14,081 nt of DNA from an uncultured Methanosarcinaceae archaeon (GTDB taxonomy: Archaea > Halobacteriota > Methanosarcinia > Methanosarcinales > Methanosarcinaceae): contig CAVTET010000002.1 in NCBI GenBank assembly GCA_963733675.1, positions 1-14,081 of the forward strand, given 5' to 3'. Below are positions 3,833 through 14,081 of the stretch, in pieces. Both the position numbers and the translations under genes were made by a program. Within the stretch, counting starts at the first letter, position 1, and the number at the start of each line of letters is the position of its first letter. A model generated the notes under the pieces. That model saw only the letters and a list, made by a program, of their open reading frames with translations, was not told the origin of the DNA and made no database searches.

Positions 3833-5025
3833 ATAATCTAATGCGGTCTATCATGACAACCCCTTCAGAGATCTACAAATTAGGACTGCCAGTACAATAC
3901 TCAATCAGTGATTTCAAAAGATTGTGCAAGGACTTTGGAGAATGGAAAAATGAGAACAATAAAATAGAATTTTCCGATATGATTGACCTTGTAATTAAAA
4001 ATGAACTAATTCCTAATGGGAAAGTTCAGATCTATGACGAAGCCCAAGACATGACTCCCCAAATGTACACAGTTGCAAAAGTATGGTCAGAAGGAGCAGA
4101 CAGGGTATTTTTAGCAGGGGACCATTTGCAGACATTGTATACATATAGTGGAGCAGAACCGAAATTATTCTTAGACTGGGGAGGAGAGCTCGAGATATTG
4201 CCAGAAAGCAAACGATTAACGAAAGACATATGGGCGATTGCAAGCGATATTATAAAGAAAAATACCCCTTACAATGCCCCACAAATCAAGACGCGTTCAG
4301 AGACGGGCAATGTAAAACAGATCAATCATACAAATCTTGAATCTTATTTGTTAAAATGCCCACATGATGCTGAAACATTTCACCTAGTACGAACTAACTA
4401 CCTATGGGGAGAGGTAGCAGAGATTCTTGCTAGATGTGGGGTTCCTTTCAGTGGAATTACAAGATACTCATGGACACAAAGCGAGCGTAATCTATACAAT
4501 GCGATTCAATCAATTCGGATATTCAGACAATTAACAAAATCCGAATTTTGTGCATTATTGGATTATTATCCTGCAAGATTAACGGGAGCTCCAAGCAACC
4601 CAAGAGATGTAGCAGATTACAAAGCAGACATTGAAGCGAGAGCTAGTATCCCAACAATGACCAAATTAAATCCTAATCTTATAGAATCGATAAAAACTGA
4701 AGACCCGCTTAAACTGTCAAATATTAAAAAAGGATTAACAAGGCTGAAGATAGAAGGAGCATTCCGAAGGGGGCTGCTAAGAATATCAGCAAATGATGTG
4801 AGCATGGTCAAAATTCTCACAATTCATGGGTCAAAAGGAATGCAAGCAACAAATGTATTTTTACACACCGGAATTACAAGAGCGATCGATCAGGGAATGC
4901 TGACAAAAAAAGGTAGGGAAAACGAAGCTTTTGTTTGGTATGTCGGAGTTACAAGGACATATAACAATTTGGTATTTGTGTCATATCCAGGCTGTCAATA
5001 TCAAATATCAGGGGTATGTACTTGA
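3718..5025 (+). CDS. UvrD/Rep-like superfamily 1 DNA helicase, N-terminally truncated (no Walker A); real coding sequence probably starts about 3830-3860
   Basis: SF1 motifs II QIYDEAQD, III LAGDHLQTLYTYSGA, IV LPESKRL, IVa LVRTN, V TIHGSKGMQ and VI YVGVTRT are present. No GxxGxGKT was seen in any upstream frame. The first ~38 aa overlap the antisense ORF 3521-3832. Confidence 0.85.
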   Translation: MCDFLLFFLQSSVHLRKPLQIIYRDRKSVLKASHFLRAYNLMRSIMTTPSEIYKLGLPVQYSISDFKRLCKDFGEWKNENNKIEFSDMIDLVIKNELIPNGKVQIYDEAQDMTPQMYTVAKVWSEGADRVFLAGDHLQTLYTYSGAEPKLFLDWGGELEILPESKRLTKDIWAIASDIIKKNTPYNAPQIKTRSETGNVKQINHTNLESYLLKCPHDAETFHLVRTNYLWGEVAEILARCGVPFSGITRYSWTQSERNLYNAIQSIRIFRQLTKSEFCALLDYYPARLTGAPSNPRDVADYKADIEARASIPTMTKLNPNLIESIKTEDPLKLSNIKKGLTRLKIEGAFRRGLLRISANDVSMVKILTIHGSKGMQATNVFLHTGITRAIDQGMLTKKGRENEAFVWYVGVTRTYNNLVFVSYPGCQYQISGVCT

Positions 5026-6335
5026 CTAAGACAATGGAGATAACGGCAACTGAAGAAACCATTTTACATTATCTAAACCCGCTGATAAAGGAAACAATTA
5101 TCAGAGTATCGAATTATGGGAACTGCAAAAGATGGGCTAACGGAGATCGATTCCACTGGTACAGTGATTATGAAAAACAGCCTATACCGATGACGGACAA
5201 GTATTATGACGAGTTGGTAAAAAAGCACCGTACCTTATATAGCACACTCTCACTGTTCAACAAAAATGTGTTTGGGCTAGAATTCCGGAACCTGACATCA
5301 GACGAAAAAAAGAATATAAGCAAGCAGTATGTTGAGAAATATACATTAGGGATTGATATTGATACAGTGGACGAAGTCAAAGGACACGGTATTAACATTC
5401 AGGAACCTAAAGTAAAGGAAGCAGTTGAAGCAGCTGCACAGTGGTACGTAGATAAGTTCAGAAAATTTGCTCCAAATTCAGTATATTGTTTGTTCTCTGG
5501 TGGCGGGATTTACGTACTGTTACACCATGAAGTCTTAAAGGATTATTTTGAACGAATTGGTTTTGGTGGGAAGGAAGATTATATCAAGCTTATAAAAACG
5601 CTTATAGATACTATTAATGAATTGACTAAGGCATACGAGATAGAATTCTTTAAAAAATATCCAGACTACATAAAATACGTAAAAATTGACCACATTAACG
5701 GTGCAAAATGGATATTTAAAACCATATTCAGCGTTCACAAAACTCATAAATTTGCAGTAATTCCACTAGACCAAAATAATATAAAAATTAAATTTGAAGA
5801 AGCAACAATTCCACTGAAAGAAGAAATAATTAAACGGGGAGCATATTGGTATACAGTTTATGATGATACGAATGATTTTTTGGTAGAACTGTCTCCATAC
5901 CTTCAAAAAATTGAGAAAAAAACGTTAGAACAAGAACGAAAACAATTTACTTCCCCAACTCAATTCAGAGTATCAGATATGAGTCATGATTATGATGAAT
6001 ACCCACCTTGCATAAAACACATATTAGGATTGGATAGATGCGGAGTAGGTGCAACCCGAGCACTCGCGTTTTTAGCATCATTTTTAGGACATATCGAGCA
6101 GGACGCTGATAAAGCATATAATATATGGTCAAAAGTTGCAAAAAGGTGGCATGCGGTAGCTCTGGAATCAAATGTATTTCAATCCCATTATAAAGTCATG
6201 CACTGCGCATCTTGCACAACCTTAAACACCTACAGGGGCGGTTTTCCACACGTGGATATCATAGAAATAGGAGCATGCAAGCCAGATTTAAGATGCCTGC
6301 AAATTAACTCTTCTAACCCTATATATTTATACTGA
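5016..6335 (+). CDS. Single-chain primase: archaeo-eukaryotic primase (PriS-like) catalytic domain fused to a PriL-like [4Fe-4S] C-terminal domain
   Basis: Motif I LGIDID (D114, D116), motif II FSGGGIY, motif III KIDH (D225), then KWIFKTIFSVHKT resembling PriS R-x-x-R-x-P-x-S-x-H-x-K. PriL-CTD-like motifs YPPCIKHIL (C332), FLASFL, SCTTL (C400), ACKPDLRC (C421, C427) and NPIY. Overlaps the helicase stop by 10 nt. Confidence 0.8.
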   Translation: MYLTKTMEITATEETILHYLNPLIKETIIRVSNYGNCKRWANGDRFHWYSDYEKQPIPMTDKYYDELVKKHRTLYSTLSLFNKNVFGLEFRNLTSDEKKNISKQYVEKYTLGIDIDTVDEVKGHGINIQEPKVKEAVEAAAQWYVDKFRKFAPNSVYCLFSGGGIYVLLHHEVLKDYFERIGFGGKEDYIKLIKTLIDTINELTKAYEIEFFKKYPDYIKYVKIDHINGAKWIFKTIFSVHKTHKFAVIPLDQNNIKIKFEEATIPLKEEIIKRGAYWYTVYDDTNDFLVELSPYLQKIEKKTLEQERKQFTSPTQFRVSDMSHDYDEYPPCIKHILGLDRCGVGATRALAFLASFLGHIEQDADKAYNIWSKVAKRWHAVALESNVFQSHYKVMHCASCTTLNTYRGGFPHVDIIEIGACKPDLRCLQINSSNPIYLY

Positions 6336-6396
6336 TAACAAAATGTACATAGAAAAACTCAAAGCTGATTTTCTTGCCAACTAGTTCAAAAATGTT

Positions 6397-6627
6397 TTTG
6401 TAACGGGTATATTCAGCTTTCAGATAGGTAGTTACCCTTAAATTACAGCTATTGATATCGTTTTATACAAAGCAGATATATTTGTAACGGGTATATAATC
6501 ATTTTTTTTTGTTTTTGAAAATATCCGTTACACCCATTACACCCGTTACAAACTAAATTGGTAAGGGCAGATAATATCGTTTTTGGTGTAATGGATTGAG
6601 TACATTTTACCAGTTACACCCGTTACA
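6397..6627. repeat. Iteron-like 9-mer array (TGTAACGGG / CCCGTTACA), candidate replication origin
   Basis: TTTGTAACGGGTATAT occurs exactly at 6397-6412 and 6481-6496. Opposite-orientation tandem copies are at 6524-6532, 6533-6541, 6542-6550, 6610-6618 and 6619-6627, with a variant TGTAATGGA at 6587-6595. Perfect 12-bp inverted repeat 6481-6492 / 6541-6552 surrounds a T-tract. Confidence 0.8.
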
Positions 6628-6735
6628 TACTCAGAAGCTATAAGATTAATTTCTTGCCATACCTATTATAAACATTTATTAGAATCGTGTCTGTATCCAT
6701 TCAATATCCCCAATAAGTGATTTAAATGATCCTAG

Positions 6736-6872
6736 ATGTCAAAAAGTTGATCTGTGAACTGCAAGTGGGTCAATGCATGCAGCCCATAGAAGGGTTGGTT
6801 GAAAGGTAGGGTAGACCTTTAAACTATGACTCAATTTAAATTAAATATAGTTTTTTTATATATTCTAAATAG
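6736..6872 (-). ncRNA. Conserved structured element copy A (candidate ~90-nt sRNA with TATA-like box and U-tract)
   Basis: Homologous to 9434-9572. ATGTCAAAAAGTTGATCT at 6736-6753; stem CTGCA 6759-6763 / TGCAG 6778-6782; stem AAAGGT 6802-6807 / ACCTTT 6815-6820; conserved AT-rich block 6844-6872. RNA identity and strand are inferred. Confidence 0.5.
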
Positions 6873-6992
6873 CAAAATTCAAACTAAAAAATTATGAAGT
6901 CTTGATTTTATAATACCTATCTAAAAAAAGGAACAATTTTTGGATATCCAGATAAAACCTGGAACCTACTCATTTAATATTGTTATTTTTAT

Positions 6993-8228
6993 TTACTTCT
7001 CAATTGGTAATTTTTTTTCTATCTTATGGTGTTTGAAGTGATTTTTTGATTTATGTTTACTAAAAGGAGCTTTAGTTTTGGAAAAATTTACTTTATCTTT
7101 TAGAACGTTACCACCTATAAACTGCCCGATGGCAACTGGATGTGATCCGACAGTTACATTAGTTATAACCTTGTTTGTGGTTGTGTCGATTACAGAGACA
7201 GTATCATCGTTCCAATTCGCTACATATACCTTTTTTCCCGTTGGGTTGACTGCAACTCCATTAGGTTTTTCTCCTACAGGCACTGTAGCTATAACTTTGT
7301 TTGTTTTAGTGTTAATTACAGATATGGTATTGCTGTCCTCATTTGCCACATATACTTTTTTTCCATCCGGTGTGACTGCAATTCCATAAGGAGACTCTCC
7401 TACCTTTATATCGGTAACGACAGTGTTTGTAGCTGTGTCAATAACAGAGACAATTCCAATAGATGTATTTTCACCATCCGAATTAGTTACATAGATTTTT
7501 GTTCCCACTGGATTGACTGCAATTCCCTTAGGAAATAATCCGCTTACATGTACTGAAGCTTTAATAGTATTAGTGGACGTATTAATTACAATTACGTCGT
7601 CGTTGTCATAGCACGTTACATAGACTTTTTTCTCATCCGGACTTACTACAATTCCATAAGGCTCACCTGATAATGGTATAGTGTTTGTAACTTCATTTGT
7701 CGCAGTGTCAATAACAGAAGCACTTCCTCCCTTTAGTCCTCCATTATTCGCTACATAAACTTTTTTTCCACTTGGACTGACTGCAACTCCATAAGGAGTT
7801 GTGTCCTTTCCTACATTCACACGATCTATTTCCTCATTTGTAGTTTTGTTAATTATAGATGCAGTTCCATCATGGTCGCTCATCAAACATATTCTCTCAG
7901 TTGGACCAGCTACAAGTCCATAAGGATATGCCAGCCCCCCTACAGATATATTGGCTGTAACCTTGTTTGTGTCTGTGTCTATTACGGAAACGGTGTCTAC
8001 CCAATCCGTTACATAAACTTTTTTCCCGTATGTGGTAGCTGCAACTCCATATCCCCCTATATTTACAGTGGCTGTAACTTTATCTGTTGCTGTATCAATT
8101 ACCGATACATTGTTGCTGCCTTCATTCGTAATATAAGCAAAGGGCGTTGCAGATGTGATACTTATCAGCACTAAAATAATAAATGCTGACATCAAGGCTA
8201 TTGAAAATAACTTACGTATACTTATCAT
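6993..8228 (-). CDS. Secreted YVTN-family beta-propeller repeat surface protein
   Basis: Signal peptide (MISIRKLFSIALMSAFIILVLISITSA), eight ~40-aa repeats of the VYVAN...VSVIDTATN.V...I.VG..P.GIAV.P.GKK type, closing GQFIG motif and a K/H-rich tail. Confidence 0.95.
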   Translation of the reverse strand: MISIRKLFSIALMSAFIILVLISITSATPFAYITNEGSNNVSVIDTATDKVTATVNIGGYGVAATTYGKKVYVTDWVDTVSVIDTDTNKVTANISVGGLAYPYGLVAGPTERICLMSDHDGTASIINKTTNEEIDRVNVGKDTTPYGVAVSPSGKKVYVANNGGLKGGSASVIDTATNEVTNTIPLSGEPYGIVVSPDEKKVYVTCYDNDDVIVINTSTNTIKASVHVSGLFPKGIAVNPVGTKIYVTNSDGENTSIGIVSVIDTATNTVVTDIKVGESPYGIAVTPDGKKVYVANEDSNTISVINTKTNKVIATVPVGEKPNGVAVNPTGKKVYVANWNDDTVSVIDTTTNKVITNVTVGSHPVAIGQFIGGNVLKDKVNFSKTKAPFSKHKSKNHFKHHKIEKKLPIEK

Positions 8229-8281
8229 GTATTTTCCCCCTTTTCTAGACCTAAATTTAAAAAATTATTATATGTTCCATT

Positions 8282-9063
8282 TTGTATAGAATATTTATCA
8301 ATCTGCTGGTTCAGAAGTATCAGTCCGTGGGGGGTATTTTTAAACAATTGCCGGGAAACAATCATGTTAAATTCAATTGCATATTGTTTCAGACAGTTGC
8401 CAGTATAGACAGGGAAAAAGCAGAAAGATTAGATCAAGAATGGAGAGAAAACGGGGGACGATGTCCCCTGATAGCTGAAGACACGGAAGACATCAAAATA
8501 CATAAGAAGACAAACAAAGATGACTTCTGTATAAACGATTTCAGTAGCAACGATAATAATATAGTCTATATAAATAAAGATATCAGAAGACAAGAAATAA
8601 AAGAGAAGATAGGAGAACAGAATTATACTCCCAATTTAGAATACCCCCCAGCAGTTGTAAATAATGAACAAGAAAAAGATGAAAAAATATTTTCTTACAA
8701 GTAAATGGAAAAAGTCTGTCTTCTGGTGAAATTCAGGGAAAAGTGTGCCAACAGCTATCGAAAAGCAGAATACAAACTGATTGTCTTTCGGTGTCTTCTG
8801 ATGTCTTCACTACCCCTAATTTGTCTTCTGAAGCAATTGTAGACACTGATGAACAAAGACATGTTGATAATTCAGATTTAGCTCCGCTACTTAGAAAAGC
8901 ATTAAACAAACTTGCTAACTCTAATGAATATAATGGTGTAGTAGAAGACATAGACGCTTTTGTAAGTGTATTTAACGAAAGGACCCCTTAATACAAAATA
9001 CGGTTTGGCCAGTGGGCGGTATTATATAACGCAGAAAAACAGAAAGCTAGGGATTGGAAGTAA
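8282..9063 (+). pseudogene. Degraded C-terminal remnant of a probable mobile-element replication protein
   Basis: ORFs 8282-8704 and 8743-8991 join through a frameshift near the A6 run at 8682-8687 (...EKDEK/NIFLQVNGKSLSSGEIQGKVCQQ...). Reading through TAA 8989-8991 continues as YKIRFGQWAVLYNAEKQKARDWK* (TAA 9061-9063). The replication role is inferred only from the internal repeats and context. Confidence 0.55.
8477..8950. repeat. Intragenic convergent heptamer array GAAGACA / TGTCTTC, candidate second origin
   Basis: GAAGACA at 8477, 8486, 8506, 8586 and 8944. TGTCTTC at 8717, 8792, 8802 and 8822. Variants TGACTTC at 8521 and TGTCTTT at 8782. Confidence 0.7.
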
Positions 9064-9067
9064 TAGT

Positions 9068-9122
9068 CCTAGATATTAAAAAGTTGACCTTATAAGTTGT
9101 AGGGATTTTCACCCTACAGCTT
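9068..9122. repeat. Conserved structured element copy B (motif plus first hairpin only)
   Basis: CCTAGATATTAAAAAGTTGACCT (9068-9090) versus CCTAGATGTCAAAAAGTTGATCT (6731-6753) is 20/23 identical. It is followed by an 11-bp stem AAGTTGTAGGG 9094-9104 / CCCTACAGCTT 9112-9122 and starts 4 nt after the stop at 9063. Confidence 0.7.
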
Positions 9123-9433
9123 GCGCACTTATCTACTTTGATGATATATGGGATGCTGTTGCAAATATAATTAAATTTAGTAAATTATATACTTTTGCTA
9201 ATATATTATTCGAATCTAAATGATTTAGTATTAACATTAGTGGTTCTTATTTCAGAATTATGGTAGATACATCCTTTCTAGGCAATCGATGACTACATCT
9301 CAACCCCAAAAGCATGTTTACACTTCCTGTAATAGGAGAATTGCATTTAATTCCTGAAAATGCCTAGATTGTCCCGCAATCGATCTTTTTATGCTTTATT
9401 TAATTGGTGTAGGTGAACAGGCGCAAATCTGAA

Positions 9434-9572
9434 ATGTCAAAAAAGTTGATCTTGTAGCCGCAGGTGTCAGCTGCCTGCAGCCTGTTGGAGAATCTATTGC
9501 AAGGTACTGGAATACCTATACTATATAACAAGATTTAATTAATAATATACTTTTTGCATATATACTATATAG
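9434..9572 (-). ncRNA. Conserved structured element copy C (candidate ~90-nt sRNA)
   Basis: ATGTCAAAAAAGTTGATCT at 9434-9452; stem GCCGCAGG 9457-9464 / CCTGCAGC 9474-9481; stem AGGTA 9502-9506 / TACCT 9513-9517. Block 9544-9572 matches 6844-6872 at 24/29 nt. Confidence 0.5.
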
Positions 9573-9955
9573 TCTAGTTTTGAATAAATAGTATAGAACA
9601 TAAGTGAAAACCTAGCTAAAAACCAAATGGATTATCCCCCTTTACTTTATTTATATCTGATAAAAGTGATAAAAACATATAAAAAATATCGAGAACCTAC
9701 CCAAAGTTCTGATTATGTACGAGCCTGGGGAATTGAATTGGTCAAAAGAACGACTTAATCTGAGCTCACTAGTGAGACTTTTATTAAAAGTTCAATGAAT
9801 TAATCATTGCCTTTCCAAAAAAATGGTCCACCGAGCCTGAGAATGGCGTATTGTGGATTTGACGTGTATAACCCATTTCCATACAGAACAAAATGAACTA
9901 AATGTTCAAATATAATACTGATTAATATTAATTATAAAGTAAAAACGGTGATAAT

Positions 9956-10386
9956 ATGGCTCGTCCTTCGAAACTGACTCCTGATATACAAAAAAGAATT
10001 GGCGATAATATTGCTTTAGGACACACATACCGGTTGGCTGCAGAATCAGTTGGTGTCACATATAAAACATTCAATGAATATATGAACAGGGGACAGACAG
10101 AGAAATCTGGGAAATATTTCCAGTTTTATAAATATATTCAAAAATGCAATGCTGATGCCGCAAAAGTTCTTTTGAACGCATAAACGAAGCAGCCAAAAAT
10201 GGTAACATGCAAATGTGTACTTGGATACTTGAACGCCGTTTTGCGTCAGACTTTGGACGCCGGGTCTATAAGAAAACAAATATTGTATCTGATAATCAAA
10301 ATGTGAGTGTTGAGATAGCATTCAATGATGCAGATGGCATTAGGGCACAAATTATAGAGAAGTTTGCATTGGGCAGAGATAATTAA
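9956..10386 (+). pseudogene. Frameshifted phage terminase-small-subunit-like HTH protein (~143 aa when repaired)
   Basis: MARPSKLTPDIQKRI...AAESVGVTYKTFNEYMNRG forms an HTH. After a 1-nt deletion at about 10170-10173 the other frame continues ERINEAAKNGNMQMCTWILERRFASDFGRRVYKK...FALGRDN* (TAA 10384-10386). The W-x-LERR-x(4)-FGR motif is typical of TerS-like HTH proteins. Confidence 0.7.
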
Positions 10387-10421
10387 AAATTTTTTATTCT
10401 ATTGTGTAATTATAACGGGAG

Positions 10422-10760
10422 TTACCAAAATCGCCACCATGGTTTCTTTGCTCCCGGAGCTTCAATTGTTTTTTGATTTAGGATAGTTTGAACTTGTATC
10501 ATATAGTTATTATGGATACTTTTTAAATCATCTATTTCTTTTCTCAAAAACTCAATTTCGATCTGCTGTTCCTGTATCCGACCATTGTCCGGCGCTGTCT
10601 GGCAGTTGTCGCACGGATCATTTGCTCTGATTAATAAGTCTAGCCCTTTGATTATAGCTTCTGTCGGACTATCATACCCCAGTTGTCGCACAGATTCAAG
10701 AGTTATAACTGAGATGCGAACACTTATCTTACGTTTCTCATCTGCCATATTATCTGGCAT
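10422..10760 (-). CDS. Small DNA-binding protein: ribbon-helix-helix N-terminus, coiled coil and amphipathic KKPWWRFW tail
   Basis: Alternating beta-strand KRKISVRIS followed by two helices (ITLESVRQLG; SPTEAIIKGLDLL); coiled coil QEQQIEIEFLRKEIDDLKSIHNN; C-terminus IEAPGAKKPWWRFW. Confidence 0.75.
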   Translation of the reverse strand: MPDNMADEKRKISVRISVITLESVRQLGYDSPTEAIIKGLDLLIRANDPCDNCQTAPDNGRIQEQQIEIEFLRKEIDDLKSIHNNYMIQVQTILNQKTIEAPGAKKPWWRFW

Positions 10761-10828
10761 ATGTCAGGCATTTAATATAAAGTGTCGCACGTTATTTGGA
10801 AAGAATATTATGTCCGAAACGGTCCGGC
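10586..10828. repeat. TGTCNGGC / TGTCGCAC octamer repeats inside and upstream of the RHH gene
   Basis: TGTCCGGC 10586, TGTCTGGC 10596, TGTCGCAC 10607, TGTCGGAC 10662, TGTCGCAC 10684, TATCTGGC 10751, TGTCAGGC 10762, TGTCGCAC 10783, TGTCCGAA 10811, GGTCCGGC 10821. Confidence 0.65.
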
Positions 10829-10882
10829 ACGGTAATGCCAATTGAAAAGTTGATTTTTATAAGAAAACCGTGTCGATCTCAG

Positions 10883-10963
10883 ACTCATGGAGCTTTTGGA
10901 CCTCATGGAGCTTATGGAACTCCTAAAACATCTGGAGCTCCTGGAACACTTGGAACTAATTAA
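10883..10963 (+). repeat. Eight degenerate 9-bp tandem repeats encoding a collagen-like Gly-X-Y 3' gene remnant
   Basis: actcatgga gcttttgga cctcatgga gcttatgga actcctaaa acatctgga gctcctgga acacttgga. One frame reads H-GAF-GPH-GAY-GTP-KTS-GAP-GTL-GTN* (TAA 10961-10963). Confidence 0.65.
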
Positions 10964-11232
10964 CCCAAACACCCATTGTAAATAGAAAAATAAAGAAATA
11001 ATAATTATATAGTACTCAAAACAAAATTAAAAATACGAATAAACGAAATCAAAACTCAATTTTTCAATACTTTAGTCTCAATTAATAAATTTCTAATAAA
11101 TTCTCTATCTCTTTACTTTCAATGAGAACTAATTTTTTAATGTGTCTTGATGCTGTTTACGTCAATATATCTGAATATTAGTTGAATAGCAACCGTTCAT
11201 CACAAATCAGAATTTTTTAGGGAGCTACACAA

Positions 11233-12249
11233 ATGTTCCAGACTGAACCTACAATTTGCCTCCAACACCTTGGAAACCAATTTTTTACACATCTAATGCA
11301 GCAAATAACTCAAATGGGATATCCCTCGTCAATAGTGCCCATCATAGTTATAGCTATTTTTGGCATTGATTTTAAAAAAAGTTTTCTTCTGTTTCAGCTA
11401 TTTATGTGGACAGACCTGGTTACCGATATTCTAAAAATATTAGTCGGATTTCCAAGGCCTTATTATGTGGATAAAAGGGTCATTAACCTAGAAAATAACA
11501 TAACAAGTACATCGAGTTTTAGTGGGAATAGAATAAAAGGCATTTTTGCTCTTCCTGACAACCAGATTCTTAACACATTTCGTCTTCAAGAAGCTTTTAA
11601 ACCTGGTTCTCTTGGTTTTCCTTCAGGGCACGTGTCGCTTACAACCGCACTATGGGGAGGGGATGCAACTGTTTTCAACAATCGGTTAATCAAAATATTA
11701 ACTCCTTTCGCAATGGTATTGATGGCATTTTCAAGAGTATACCTAGGGAAACATTTCATAGGAGATGTTGTAGGTGGAGCTATTGTCGGATTAATTTCCA
11801 TAGTAGTTTTTGCGTATTTCCTGAAAAGCTCTCTGAGACAAGATTTTTTTAAAAAAGAGAGTTTTGAATTGGCTTTCAGACATGAGAATTTATTTTTTTA
11901 CTGTTTTATGTTCGTTATTCCTATTATACTCATAGCATTCTCTCTGATAGGCTCTCATCCTTTAAACACTGATATGGGATATTTACTTGGCATGAATGTC
12001 ACATATCTCCTTATTATGAGAAAAGGAATACCAGATGACACCGGAACTGCGGGACAGCGGGCTACACGGGTGTTTATCGCGCTCCTGCTGTTTGAAGTGC
12101 CAAAAATAATTCTCAGCTGCGTGTTTTGTACAAATTACTTATTTGCAATAGAATTTCTGAAAACCTTCATTCCTGCATCTACAATCTGGGTTTCGGTAGT
12201 CATCTGCGAAAAATTTAACCTATATAAAAGAAATGAAGAAAGTTTATGA
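11233..12249 (+). CDS. Membrane PAP2-family phosphatase (phosphoesterase)
   Basis: C1 KILVGFPRP, C2 GFPSGH and C3 SRVYLGKHFIGDVVGG motifs, several transmembrane segments, and GGGAG upstream of the ATG. Confidence 0.93.
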   Translation: MFQTEPTICLQHLGNQFFTHLMQQITQMGYPSSIVPIIVIAIFGIDFKKSFLLFQLFMWTDLVTDILKILVGFPRPYYVDKRVINLENNITSTSSFSGNRIKGIFALPDNQILNTFRLQEAFKPGSLGFPSGHVSLTTALWGGDATVFNNRLIKILTPFAMVLMAFSRVYLGKHFIGDVVGGAIVGLISIVVFAYFLKSSLRQDFFKKESFELAFRHENLFFYCFMFVIPIILIAFSLIGSHPLNTDMGYLLGMNVTYLLIMRKGIPDDTGTAGQRATRVFIALLLFEVPKIILSCVFCTNYLFAIEFLKTFIPASTIWVSVVICEKFNLYKRNEESL

Positions 12250-12823
12250 GTAAGCCAGTTGACTTAACTTCAAAGTGCTGTGGAATGCAAAGCAAATGCA
12301 TGTTGTGGGTTGTATAGAAAAAATATCGGATTTCAAAGAAACTAAATAAAAAAGTTTATAATGTACTAGACCAAATATTGTTTTGTCGAACAGACAAACA
12401 AATCCTCATACAGTAAATTCGATACTGTTGATGTGTTAGCATAGCAGTATTAATCTCTCCAAATTCATAATACACTTTGATTTCCATAATAGTTAATTTT
12501 TGCAACGTAAGACCCATCCCCATGATGGACTCTATATCATTTTTTTGCCACACAAACAGAGTCCAGAGTCAATGAGTAGGATAACAAAGCTGGTATTCTA
12601 ATGCAGAGTTTTTGCTATAAAACCTATGTATCAGTGAAAGCAATACAGGAGCTTTATCAATACCATAATTAACTTATCTCCTTCTTTTGAAACAAAAAAA
12701 CCGAGTTATCATTTTTTTCCCGAACTTTGAGTACACCGATTTCTTGTACTTTAATACTTGAAATGTAGGATGATATAAAAAAGAAATAATAATTTCCTGC
12801 ATATACACTAAAAAGGTGTAGAA

Positions 12824-12982
12824 ATGAAAGCTGGAGTTTTAGTTTCTCATATTCTGTTATTAACCACAACACTTTTTTTACTTTTCACAATAGTTCCAGC
12901 AGCTGAATACAAAATAGTTAATATAGAAGTTAATGCAGAGAATAACGAAGGAAATGCTAAAATAGGATTTAATAAAGCTTGA
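12824..12982 (+). CDS. Small (52 aa) signal-peptide-bearing protein
   Basis: MKAGVLVSHILLLTTTLFLLFTIVPAAEYKIVNIEVNAENNEGNAKIGFNKA*. AGGTG RBS-like sequence upstream and a terminator-like hairpin downstream. Not in the ORF track. Confidence 0.5.
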   Translation: MKAGVLVSHILLLTTTLFLLFTIVPAAEYKIVNIEVNAENNEGNAKIGFNKA

Positions 12983-13000
12983 AATGAGCTAAATAATTAA

Positions 13001-13032
13001 AAAGGGGTTATTACAGTTCCCCTTTATTTTTT
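13001..13032. terminator. Hairpin with flanking A/T tracts between convergent small genes
   Basis: AAAGGGG 13001-13007 / CCCCTTT 13019-13025 with an 11-nt loop, followed by ATTTTTT and preceded by an A-run. Confidence 0.55.
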
Positions 13033-13229
13033 GCCGACATTACTTTATGCACTTGTGGGATTTGGTAAGTTCCATTTAATACCTTGGACCTGGTAGATAC
13101 ATTTTATATATCACATAAAAATTTCCATTGGGTGTGGATAGCCAATTTGATTCTTTTCTAGAAGGTTCACCGTGTTTGATGTAATGTCCAGGGAACTGTC
13201 TAGATTTACCATGTAACACATTTTTATAT

Positions 13230-13490
13230 TCAGATTATATAGCTGCCACATCCACCGTATCCGATGCCGTAACCGCAGCTGCCATACCAGGGATATCCAA
13301 AGCCATAGCCCCAGCCGCCATACCAGGGATATCCAAAGCCGTAACCCCAGCCACCGTAGCCACCCCAGCCACCGTAGCCGCCATGGCCCCAATGGGCCGC
13401 CGCGTGCACTAGCTGCAACTGCTGACAAAGATGTTACAAATAAAATGCCAGTAAAATGGCAAGTACCTTTTTCATACTGAGTTTCAACAT
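13230..13490 (-). pseudogene. Gly/Tyr/Trp-rich small secreted protein with two compensating frameshifts
   Basis: GGAG RBS then ATG 13490 (second ATG 13475) gives MLKLSMKKVLAILLA. A shifted frame gives LFVTSLSAVAASARGG. The original frame resumes as HWGHGGYGGWGGYGGWGYGFGYPWYGGWGYGFGYPWYGSCGYGIGYGGCGSYII*. As sequenced there is an in-frame TAA at 13436-13434. Confidence 0.75.
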
Positions 13491-14081
13491 TTATTCCACT
13501 CCTTTTATTATATTTATAAGATAATATTTTTAGCCTTATCTTTGAATCATTGCTCTATCGATTAATAGTGAAACCAAACTTAACCGGCCTGCTAGTAAAA
13601 AGACAAGCATCTTTGTTACTGAGCAGCAATCATTAGTAATGTTTTAATTATATATAAATATTATTAGATTAATAAAAAAATAAATGTAGAAGAGTTCACG
13701 AATGAATCCACACGTTTAAAAAGCGTATTTCTGCATTAAAATGGAAAAAAATAAAGCATCAAATACCCTTCAATAAAATTCAAAAATGTAATTAACAACA
13801 TAATTCCTATAATAACCCACCAGCACTACACTAACTGTGACTATGTGCTGAACCCTCACACTAACCAATGGATTGAAATGCTAATCAATGTGTATAGGCA
13901 CCTATAATATATTCAAGTTTTAAGACCAGCTCCACTTTCAAGACAATGTTTCTAAGCATCTATAAATTCCAATTGGCTCTGTATCACTTTACTTCATCAA
14001 AAAATAGAATCCAGATCCGACAATTATTATTAACACATCTTATGCTTTTTCGTTTTCCTGATGCACAGTTTTTGTGTGTAA

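Follow-up and report, generated by a model that had tools for sequence, protein, structure and literature searches.

A dispersed family of hairpin-bearing intergenic repeats, candidate small transcription units, in uncultured peat Methanosarcina

In bacteria, dispersed repeats with promoters and RNA hairpins reshape gene expression. Here we describe a comparable unit, present as three copies (A, B and C) in a 14,081-nt stretch of DNA, hereafter the window, which is one whole contig (CAVTET010000002.1) of the 3.92-Mb genome (15 contigs) of an uncultured Methanosarcinaceae archaeon (GCA_963733675.1). Each copy has a core with one or two hairpins and an adjoining AT-rich, promoter-like block, and the copies are members of a dispersed family, ~50 strong in the genome of this peat methanogen. 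Among the closest described systems are the Correia repeat-enclosed elements of Neisseria, which like the unit are short (~100-150 nt), intergenic, dispersed and numerous, and which combine an RNA hairpin with promoter elements and either share a transcript with neighbouring genes or drive them. They are bacterial, however, with clear terminal inverted repeats and a TA duplication, neither of which was found for the unit, and the unit's promoter-like block is of the archaeal TATA type. BOX of Streptococcus pneumoniae, ERIC and BIME are likewise modular, form stable stem-loops and have no coding capacity, and the BOX-like modularity recurs here in the core and two further conserved stretches, the R and T modules, which can be joined, solitary or tandemly arrayed. 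Unlike the unit, BOX, ERIC and BIME have shorter modules and no promoter-to-terminator layout, and they share no sequence relation with it.

Two other systems invite comparison. The plasmid countertranscript RNAs RNAI and CopA are ~90 nt long, with two stem-loops, their own promoter and a U-tract, and the unit resembles them also in lying near a replication gene in the window. RNAI and CopA are antisense to the leader of a rep gene and occur once per replicon, whereas the unit overlaps no gene, lies downstream of the rep gene and convergent with it, and the ~50 copies are mostly far from any rep. REP and REPIN sequences with their RAYT transposases, and the palindrome-associated elements of the haloarchaeal IS200/IS605 group, share with the unit a hairpin-centred design, the lack of evident inverted ends or duplications, and a genome rich in Y1 transposase remnants. 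Unlike them, the unit is much longer than a REP, includes a promoter-like block and shows neither shared ends nor association with IS200-like copies. We rate it as belonging with the dispersed hairpin- and promoter-bearing intergenic repeats, an already known kind.

The likeness of A, B and C, first proposed by a model from the letters and open reading frames of the window (the sequence-only reading), is real. All three have an A-run, a GTTGAYC motif, the AT-rich block and a hairpin 1 whose arms vary in sequence among the copies while their complementarity stays (Table 1). A repeat finder links them through four pairs, 9077-9094/9439-9456 (D9), 6725-6753/9062-9090 (D11, 83%), 6741-6767/9440-9466 (D17, 78%) and 9165-9196/9523-9554 (D10, 81%), and a covariance model built on the genome's other copies recovers all three, each on the minus strand. 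A second hairpin, as had been claimed, is present in A and C and absent from B. The further claim that plus-strand mismatches become G-U pairs on the minus strand is borne out by one C:A in hairpin 1 of copy C. Against dinucleotide shuffles, the minus-sense folds of A, B and C have modest z-scores of -2.43, -1.62 and -1.71, and the plus-sense folds have -1.38, -2.78 and +0.24, which agrees with the earlier remark that B favours the plus strand.

What is this element? A match to a known Rfam family had been named as an outcome that would speak against its novelty; none fell on the element when the window was searched at E up to 10, nor at six further loci bearing the core, R, T or low-copy form at E up to 1. 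The window has no tRNA or tmRNA, and plasmid, phage and viral collections gave no match to the element.

The description as a three-copy element holds for the window only. A DNA search with copy C found 40 matches in its own genome, and a profile made from 19 seed copies found 63 hits on ten contigs, 57 once the six on contig C13, which are duplicates of those in the window, are removed. Fifty of the 57 cover at least 120 of the 172 model positions; the shorter hits and the six duplicates were dropped before the family was aligned. Tandem runs in one orientation with a period of ~330-460 nt are common, B and C being one such pair. The youngest copy pairs are alike over ~150 nt only, that is, over the core and the AT-rich block, in agreement with the limits first drawn for A and C. 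The genes that flank the copies are heterogeneous, of several unrelated kinds or none, and some copies adjoin housekeeping genes such as that for seryl-tRNA synthetase. In being short, non-coding, numerous and dispersed, the copies are like transposable elements of the miniature inverted-repeat kind (MITEs).

Read on the minus strand, the family consensus has the following order: a purine-rich (A-rich) stretch, a TATATAAT-like box, ~24 nt, hairpin 2, a pyrimidine-rich (CUUUCC-like) linker, hairpin 1, ACAAGAUCAAC and U5-6. In the family alignment hardly any insertions or deletions interrupt the spacing from the box to hairpin 2, and TATA stands in the same columns in 36 of 50 copies, counted by eye; the A-rich stretch is visible in the family listing upstream of the box, on its minus-strand side. 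A regular-expression count (TATA in 38 of 50 copies, with a purine-rich upstream stretch in 12) mostly caught a neighbouring AT-rich word and is not used. After hairpin 1 there is a run of at least five T in 35 of 47 copies and of at least four in 38. Archaeal transcripts start ~22-27 nt after the TATA box, and a purine-rich element (the B recognition element, BRE, or its like) lies upstream of the box. Because of this spacing, the minus-strand starts of A, B and C are predicted at ~6820-6823, ~9160 and ~9518-9522; for A and C this is some 10 nt inside the starts proposed earlier (near 6830 and 9530).

Base pairing in the two hairpins is kept. Automatic consensus folding of a MAFFT alignment gave 6 pairs only, with misaligned loops, and the structure was therefore set by hand. 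In this alignment, of 47 copies with the three most aberrant of the 50 omitted (C1:746k, C3:241k and C4:141k), 77.9% of the cells pair. Shuffles give 74.3 +/- 0.6%, none of 500 attaining the observed value, and sliding the partner lowers the figure to 27-45%; both sides have changed in 14 of the 19 pairs. Realignment to the covariance model brought together 123 matches from ~20 genomes, 94 of them distinct. Among the distinct sequences 86.8% of the cells pair and double changes occur in 13 of 15 pairs (76 cells versus 29.6 +/- 4.1 in shuffles, 0 of 500); since this alignment leans to the model and the copies are kin, the pairing figures are not to be read as probabilities. The loops and the linker vary, with a mean column identity of 62% and no conserved unpaired core. 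A riboswitch or dedicated cis-acting leader was considered and rejected on account of this variation and because the genes downstream, where there are any, belong to several unrelated kinds.

Which strand would be transcribed? One pair, 66/113, is informative: in the minus sense it is GU in 57, AU in 32, GC in three and another combination in one of 93 sequences, thus GU or AU in 89, and on the plus strand those 57 GU pairs would read C:A. Over the whole of hairpin 1, 396 of 459 cells pair in the minus sense and 367 in the plus sense, and hairpin 2 is strand-neutral (158 and 161 of 209 cells, respectively). The fold z-scores of A and C favour the minus strand. Taken with the contrary signals weighed below, the evidence on strand is mixed and leans to the minus strand.

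Contigs from an RNA library also cover the core. One metatranscriptome run, available as contigs only, was matched at at least 90% to positions 6000-10400; it contains a small share, 0.17, of the sampled words. Contig depth is 3.35 in the bin over the core of A (6735-6881), 9.21 over B (9087-9233) and 28.1 over C (9381-9527), and it is near zero in flanking bins (0.13 at 9528-9674, 0.73 at 9234-9380, and 0 at 8646-9086 and 6882-7028). Because such contigs show presence only, the drop in depth is no evidence for transcript ends. RNA-library contigs also cover the beta-propeller gene and the terminase-like gene (9675-10400 is covered). The former is an open reading frame (ORF) of 411 amino acids at 6993-8228 on the minus strand, YNCE/NHL-like, with six DNA repeats of ~126-141 nt and good coverage by RNA-library contigs.

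Across genomes the family is unevenly distributed. The covariance model finds 56 matches in the window's genome (G000) and 53, 55, 27, 41 and 45 in five sister genomes. Of the 59 genomes of the genus searched, 18 others have 1-4 matches and 35 have none; there were no matches in 39 genomes from 17 other genera of the order. An exact scan of species genomes for a 21-letter motif returned 21 loci, 18 of them in uncultured Methanosarcina or Methanosarcinaceae bins from bog, fen or soil and the other three chance hits in bacteria. Full-text searches of the literature gave no description of such a repeat family in Methanosarcina. In four of the low-copy genomes the single copy occupies one syntenic place (L114, L115, L119 and L124). 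It comprises the A-rich stretch and TATA box, hairpin 2 and hairpin 1, with no U-tract, and is followed by ~250 conserved bases, a GGAGG and a zinc-ribbon ORF of 46 amino acids. The position of the start codon is ATG in one of these genomes and ACG in three. From this arrangement the low-copy unit can be read as a putative promoter and 5' leader of the zinc-ribbon ORF, the ~250-nt region being presumably its 5' untranslated region. The zinc-ribbon ORF was not found in G000 (best tblastn E 1.4, in a genome that is 92% complete). In two further low-copy genomes, and for several copies in G000, the unit lies ~145-360 nt before pentapeptide-repeat genes, and other G000 copies stand directly before a small membrane-like ORF (six copies) or an ORF of ~40 amino acids (four).

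Table 1. Positions of the repeat copies, their parts and associated features. Positions are in the window unless a locus is named.
Feature	Positions	Strand	Details
Copy A core	6734-6823	-	covariance model 68.7 bits, E 3.8e-10
Copy A parts	hairpin 2 6802-6820; linker; hairpin 1 ~6757-6786; T5 6741-6745	-	T5 as read on minus strand
Copy A promoter-like AT-rich block	6836-6872	-	sequence and family alignment
Copy B core	9071-9175	-	covariance model 49.4 bits, E 2.3e-6; most diverged of the three
Copy B parts	hairpin 1 9096-9120; T5 9078-9082	-	T5 as read on minus strand; hairpin 2 lost
Copy B promoter-like block	9165-9212	-	minus strand AGCAAAAG then TATATAAT
Copy C core ('L' module)	9432-9522	-	covariance model 81 bits, E 1.5e-12
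Copy C hairpins and linker	hairpin 2 9502-9517; C/U-rich linker 9482-9501; hairpin 1 9457-9481	-	
Copy C after hairpin 1	A-run 9439-9444	-	AAGATCAAC, then T6 on minus strand
Copy C promoter-like AT-rich block	9523-9572	-	sequence and family alignment
Copy C block, motifs	9550-9557; 9543-9550	-	minus strand GCAAAAAG (9550-9557) then TATATTAT (9543-9550)
Spacer between B and C, part of R/T modules	9213-9431	+	extended profile: window 9068-9417 = model positions 71-436
Conserved leader/promoter region of terminase-small-subunit-like gene ('R2' variant)	9590-9955	+	
Terminase-small-subunit-like helix-turn-helix gene	9956-10183	+	75 amino acids here, 140 in fuller copies
GTTACAYCC iteron-like repeats	6522-6627	+	after primase-like gene 5016-6335
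Other repeat families	L017 1200-1500; L014 830-1020, 1785-2285		many sites in G019, G048 and G051

The reading we favour, to which we would give roughly an even chance, is that the family is a dispersed small archaeal transcription unit of ~150 nt whose product would be either an RNA of ~90 nt or a 5' leader. Transcription on the minus strand would begin ~24 nt downstream of the purine-rich stretch and TATA box, whose consensus is close to GCAAAAAN-TATATAAT. The resulting RNA would fold into hairpin 2, a single-stranded C/U-rich linker and the well-kept hairpin 1, and would end at AAGAUCAAC-U5-6 after ~85-95 nt. At sites with a weak U-tract or with a gene next to it, the unit would act as a promoter and 5' leader instead. 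The family would have been amplified in the ancestor of one uncultured peat Methanosarcina clade and would now be mostly inherited in place. We infer from these features where the RNA starts and ends, which strand it comes from and any role that the linker has in trans. The minus-strand ~90-nt RNA of the sequence-only reading is strengthened, short of proof, by the recurrence of the promoter-like block, its spacing, the T-run, the covariation, pair 66/113 and the RNA contigs.

Several observations weigh against this reading. First, copies at orthologous sites in G000 and in genome G074 are 95.8, 93.8, 87.3, 92.4 and 92.1% identical, compared with 91.0 and 90.7% for the surrounding blocks, and the identity of the copies is only slightly above that of the spacers between them; the seryl-tRNA synthetase copy, common to four genomes, has uncompensated changes in hairpin 1 in three. 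Because orthologous copies evolve near the rate of their surroundings and hairpin 1 changes go uncompensated, most copies show little or no purifying selection, look nearly neutral today and may be inert. Second, flanking genes are convergent with the unit about as often as co-directional (by tally), and no antisense, antitoxin or copy-number target was found. Pairing of the core RNA with the leader of the terminase-like gene, computed at six loci with 25 shuffles only, gave z-scores from -2.17 to +0.88 and uninformative duplexes with many long loops, the sole recurring contact being A/U-rich (UUUUGAC with GUCAAAA). Third, the A-run resembles part of a plus-strand word, GTCAAWAAW..GAY, which the R and T modules repeat ahead of a different hairpin, and because of this recurrence it may be no terminator. 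Fourth, 39 of 50 copies have the lower raw minimum free energy in the plus sense; the shuffles show that plus-strand folds are lower from composition alone, which explains much of this bias, yet copy B still prefers the plus strand by z-score, and the strand signals of pairs 72/108 and 73/107 point in opposite directions and cancel out. Finally, the RNA-library contigs give no strand, ends or level, and their source could be other copies, relatives or DNA.

The chief rival, unlikely on balance and still one to be reckoned with, takes the unit for mobile DNA of a non-autonomous kind, MITE-like or a hairpin-ended single-strand element of HUH/Y1 type. A transposase would then recognise hairpin 1 as DNA, the resemblance to a promoter and terminator would be incidental in DNA so rich in A and T, and any transcripts would be by-products. 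High copy number in six genomes, beside few copies in 18 and none in 35, speaks for mobility, as do the unrelated intergenic sites, the tandem runs and the near-neutral evolution of orthologous copies, and the strand-specific wobble would also suit a hairpin of single-stranded DNA. The genome furthermore has ~65-70 remnants of IS200-type Y1 transposases. The intergenic regions of the clade are mosaics of many repeat families, including ~100-nt tandem and ~190-nt families with dozens of hits per genome, and this too fits the mobile-element reading, as does the corresponding site in G051, which lacks the unit and has an unlike 161-nt filler in place of a 508-nt stretch. At the three loci compared with sister genomes, however, no target-site duplication or clean empty site was found, the regions having been replaced wholesale, and by eye the left ATTAGYTTAGGTGA matches the inverted right end at only 11-13 of 14-16 positions, in a place that adjoins an internal palindrome and with conservation continuing beyond it. 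In a 20-kb syntenic stretch all five copies stand at the same places in G074, at ~90% identity: nothing in that stretch has moved recently, and the amplification is old. Also at odds with a mobile element is the conservation of the TATA block and the T-run, which is among the highest in the unit.

Descent from the IS200-type Y1 transposases, as IS200/IS605-derived, REPIN-like elements, was considered in its own right and rejected for want of shared ends and of adjacency above chance. The IS200-like copies lack the unit at their ends and four of 65 lie within 1.2 kb of one, and a match to the Y1 transposase (PF01797) is found within 1.5 kb of four of the 63 profile hits, which we estimate to be about the chance level. 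TnpB was rejected as an autonomous parent, the sole intact TnpB gene having only the start of an R module upstream. Elsewhere in the genome, C3 326449-331387 is a clean 4.9-kb insertion relative to G074, of which ~3 kb recurs several times per sister genome; it is probably an insertion sequence or transposon.

A further alternative, which we regard as improbable, takes the core together with R and T for the control region of a proliferated provirus- or plasmid-like cassette. Conservation does extend past the limits first given for the copies. To the left lie a T-rich stretch and a TTAGCTTAGGTGATCAGGCTGATC-like word, and to the right of the AT-rich block, just upstream of the minus-strand TATA box, is the palindrome TACTAA-N10-TTAGTA. 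In about a dozen copies ~200 further bases follow, the R and T modules, and 13 hits of an extended profile span most of this length. The R/T unit follows the core in many copies and also occurs upstream of terminase-small-subunit-like genes; the T module is found solitary as well, at several places ~130 nt before the small helix-turn-helix (terminase-like) gene. As a separate observation, GTCAAAAAGTTGATCTTGTGAG, which precedes hairpin 1 on the plus strand (e.g. window 9438-9460), is similar to GTCAATAAATGACTTAATCTCAG and GTCGAAAAACGACTTAACCTGAG, both of them placed ahead of a further hairpin in the R and T modules; the three may be paralogous motif-plus-hairpin signals in direct orientation.

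The cassette would consist of the terminase-like gene facing a ribbon-helix-helix gene, at times beside helicase and primase genes; hairpins and palindromes, TACTAA-N10-TTAGTA among them, would be operator, packaging or recombination sites for its DNA-binding proteins, and solitary units would be remnants after gene loss. In the window the core of C lies 368 nt upstream of the terminase-like gene and divergent from it, and a divergent arrangement at 364-375 nt is found for five such genes genome-wide (on C2, C7 twice, C1 and C4), with one more at 472 nt. The gene has 36 tblastn rows in the genome, representing ~33 distinct loci, and its 140-amino-acid paralogue matches phrog_4102 (E 6.1e-22). 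The cassette reading also draws on the T modules before several of these genes and on the one to four units that stand between rep-like and terminase-like genes on C2, C7 and C13. Against it, ~27 of the 33 terminase-like loci lack a core in their vicinity, most cores have none of the cassette genes within 2.5 kb, and the low-copy units are not near any of the ten query proteins taken from the window. Moreover, compensatory changes in the hairpin arms fit base pairing better than a protein half-site. The unit is over-represented in provirus- or plasmid-like cassettes, which may have carried it, and ~40 copies are elsewhere.

The first description had tied the element to replication modules, which does not hold for the family: by tblastn only three loci resemble the window's primase-like rep gene, as against ~50 copies, and the flanking genes are heterogeneous. 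In the window, the helicase matches phrog_1967 (E 1.1e-34) and the gene at 5016-6335 is weakly primase-like. The spacing reported for A and B, ~100-120 nt past iteron arrays, is confirmed, A lying ~104 nt after the GTTACAYCC repeats and B ~118 nt after GAAGACA words. The GAAGACA/TGTCTTC words before B sit inside the ORFs 8282-8704 and 8743-8991; window 8477-8950 has GAAGACA five times and TGTCTTC four times, a cluster that could represent iterons within coding sequence or else repetition at the codon level. Elsewhere, units follow rep-like genes at 430 nt on C13 and 1837 nt on C7, the C13 gene being a different ORF of 678 amino acids that tblastn did not match to the rep of the window.

Still less probable is a plus-strand RNA, or the 3' region of an upstream transcript, that would start after a TTTATTTAAT-like box left of the unit and end at CTTTTT in the AT-rich block. 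The energies of the 39 copies and the better pairing and folding of copy B on the plus strand point this way, as do the conserved T-run that follows the TATA box on the plus strand and the AT-rich box before many units. It is opposed by pair 66/113, which would be C:A in most sequences, by the plus-sense z-score of copy C, and by the position of the purine-rich stretch on the minus-strand side of the TATA box. That the element is a single-strand priming signal or origin element like ssiA of RSF1010, as had been suggested in the alternative, is barely credible for a chromosome-wide repeat: the place of A after the GTTACAYCC repeats and primase-like gene and the units after rep-like genes on C13 and C7 would suit it, but with ~50 copies and three loci matching the window's rep an origin-region setting applies to A at most, copies lie beside housekeeping genes, and a kept TATA block and T-run would be unexpected in a priming site.

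The surroundings of the three copies have features of their own. The terminase-like gene faces a ribbon-helix-helix-like gene (10422-10760), and this pair occurs with its conserved leader at ~33 loci, a striking number. Window 4260-14081 is 99.9% identical to C13 1-9829, and 8.5 kb of it recurs inverted at C13 41733-50192 (99.7%); these end repeats of C13 mean either that a linear element ends in a long inverted repeat or that the assembly has collapsed there. An 84-nt inverted repeat (2905-2988/12549-12632, 77% complementary) brackets ~9.6 kb that holds the helicase, the primase-like gene, the repeats, the beta-propeller gene and the terminase-like cassette, and may mark the ends of an inserted element. 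A 9-nt periodic, GC-rich ACCCCAGCCACCGTAGCC-like repeat occupies 13245-13388 within the minus-strand ORF 13111-13428 (105 amino acids) and gave a spurious weak 'Prion_pknot' hit in Rfam.

What might the dispersed small transcription unit mean for the biology of these methanogens? In the boldest form of this reading, which we consider doubtful, the family would be a mobile small-RNA gene of archaea: a promoter-RNA-terminator unit at ~50 copies per genome, whose two-hairpin RNAs would act in trans through the linker and which would also donate a promoter and 5' leader. If this is true, the C/U-rich linker would target, for example, purine-rich ribosome-binding sites, and the recipients of the leader would be as unrelated as terminase-like cassettes, pentapeptide-repeat genes and small proteins. 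For annotation the family calls for caution, since a structured element beside a replication gene in this clade may be one copy of a genome-wide repeat. To our knowledge, repeats that carry promoters and hairpins have hardly been described in methanogens. With ~50 copies in each of six sister peat Methanosarcina genomes, the family is a test case for whether archaea spread ready-made small transcription units, and it can show whether such units turn into small RNAs or 5' leaders.

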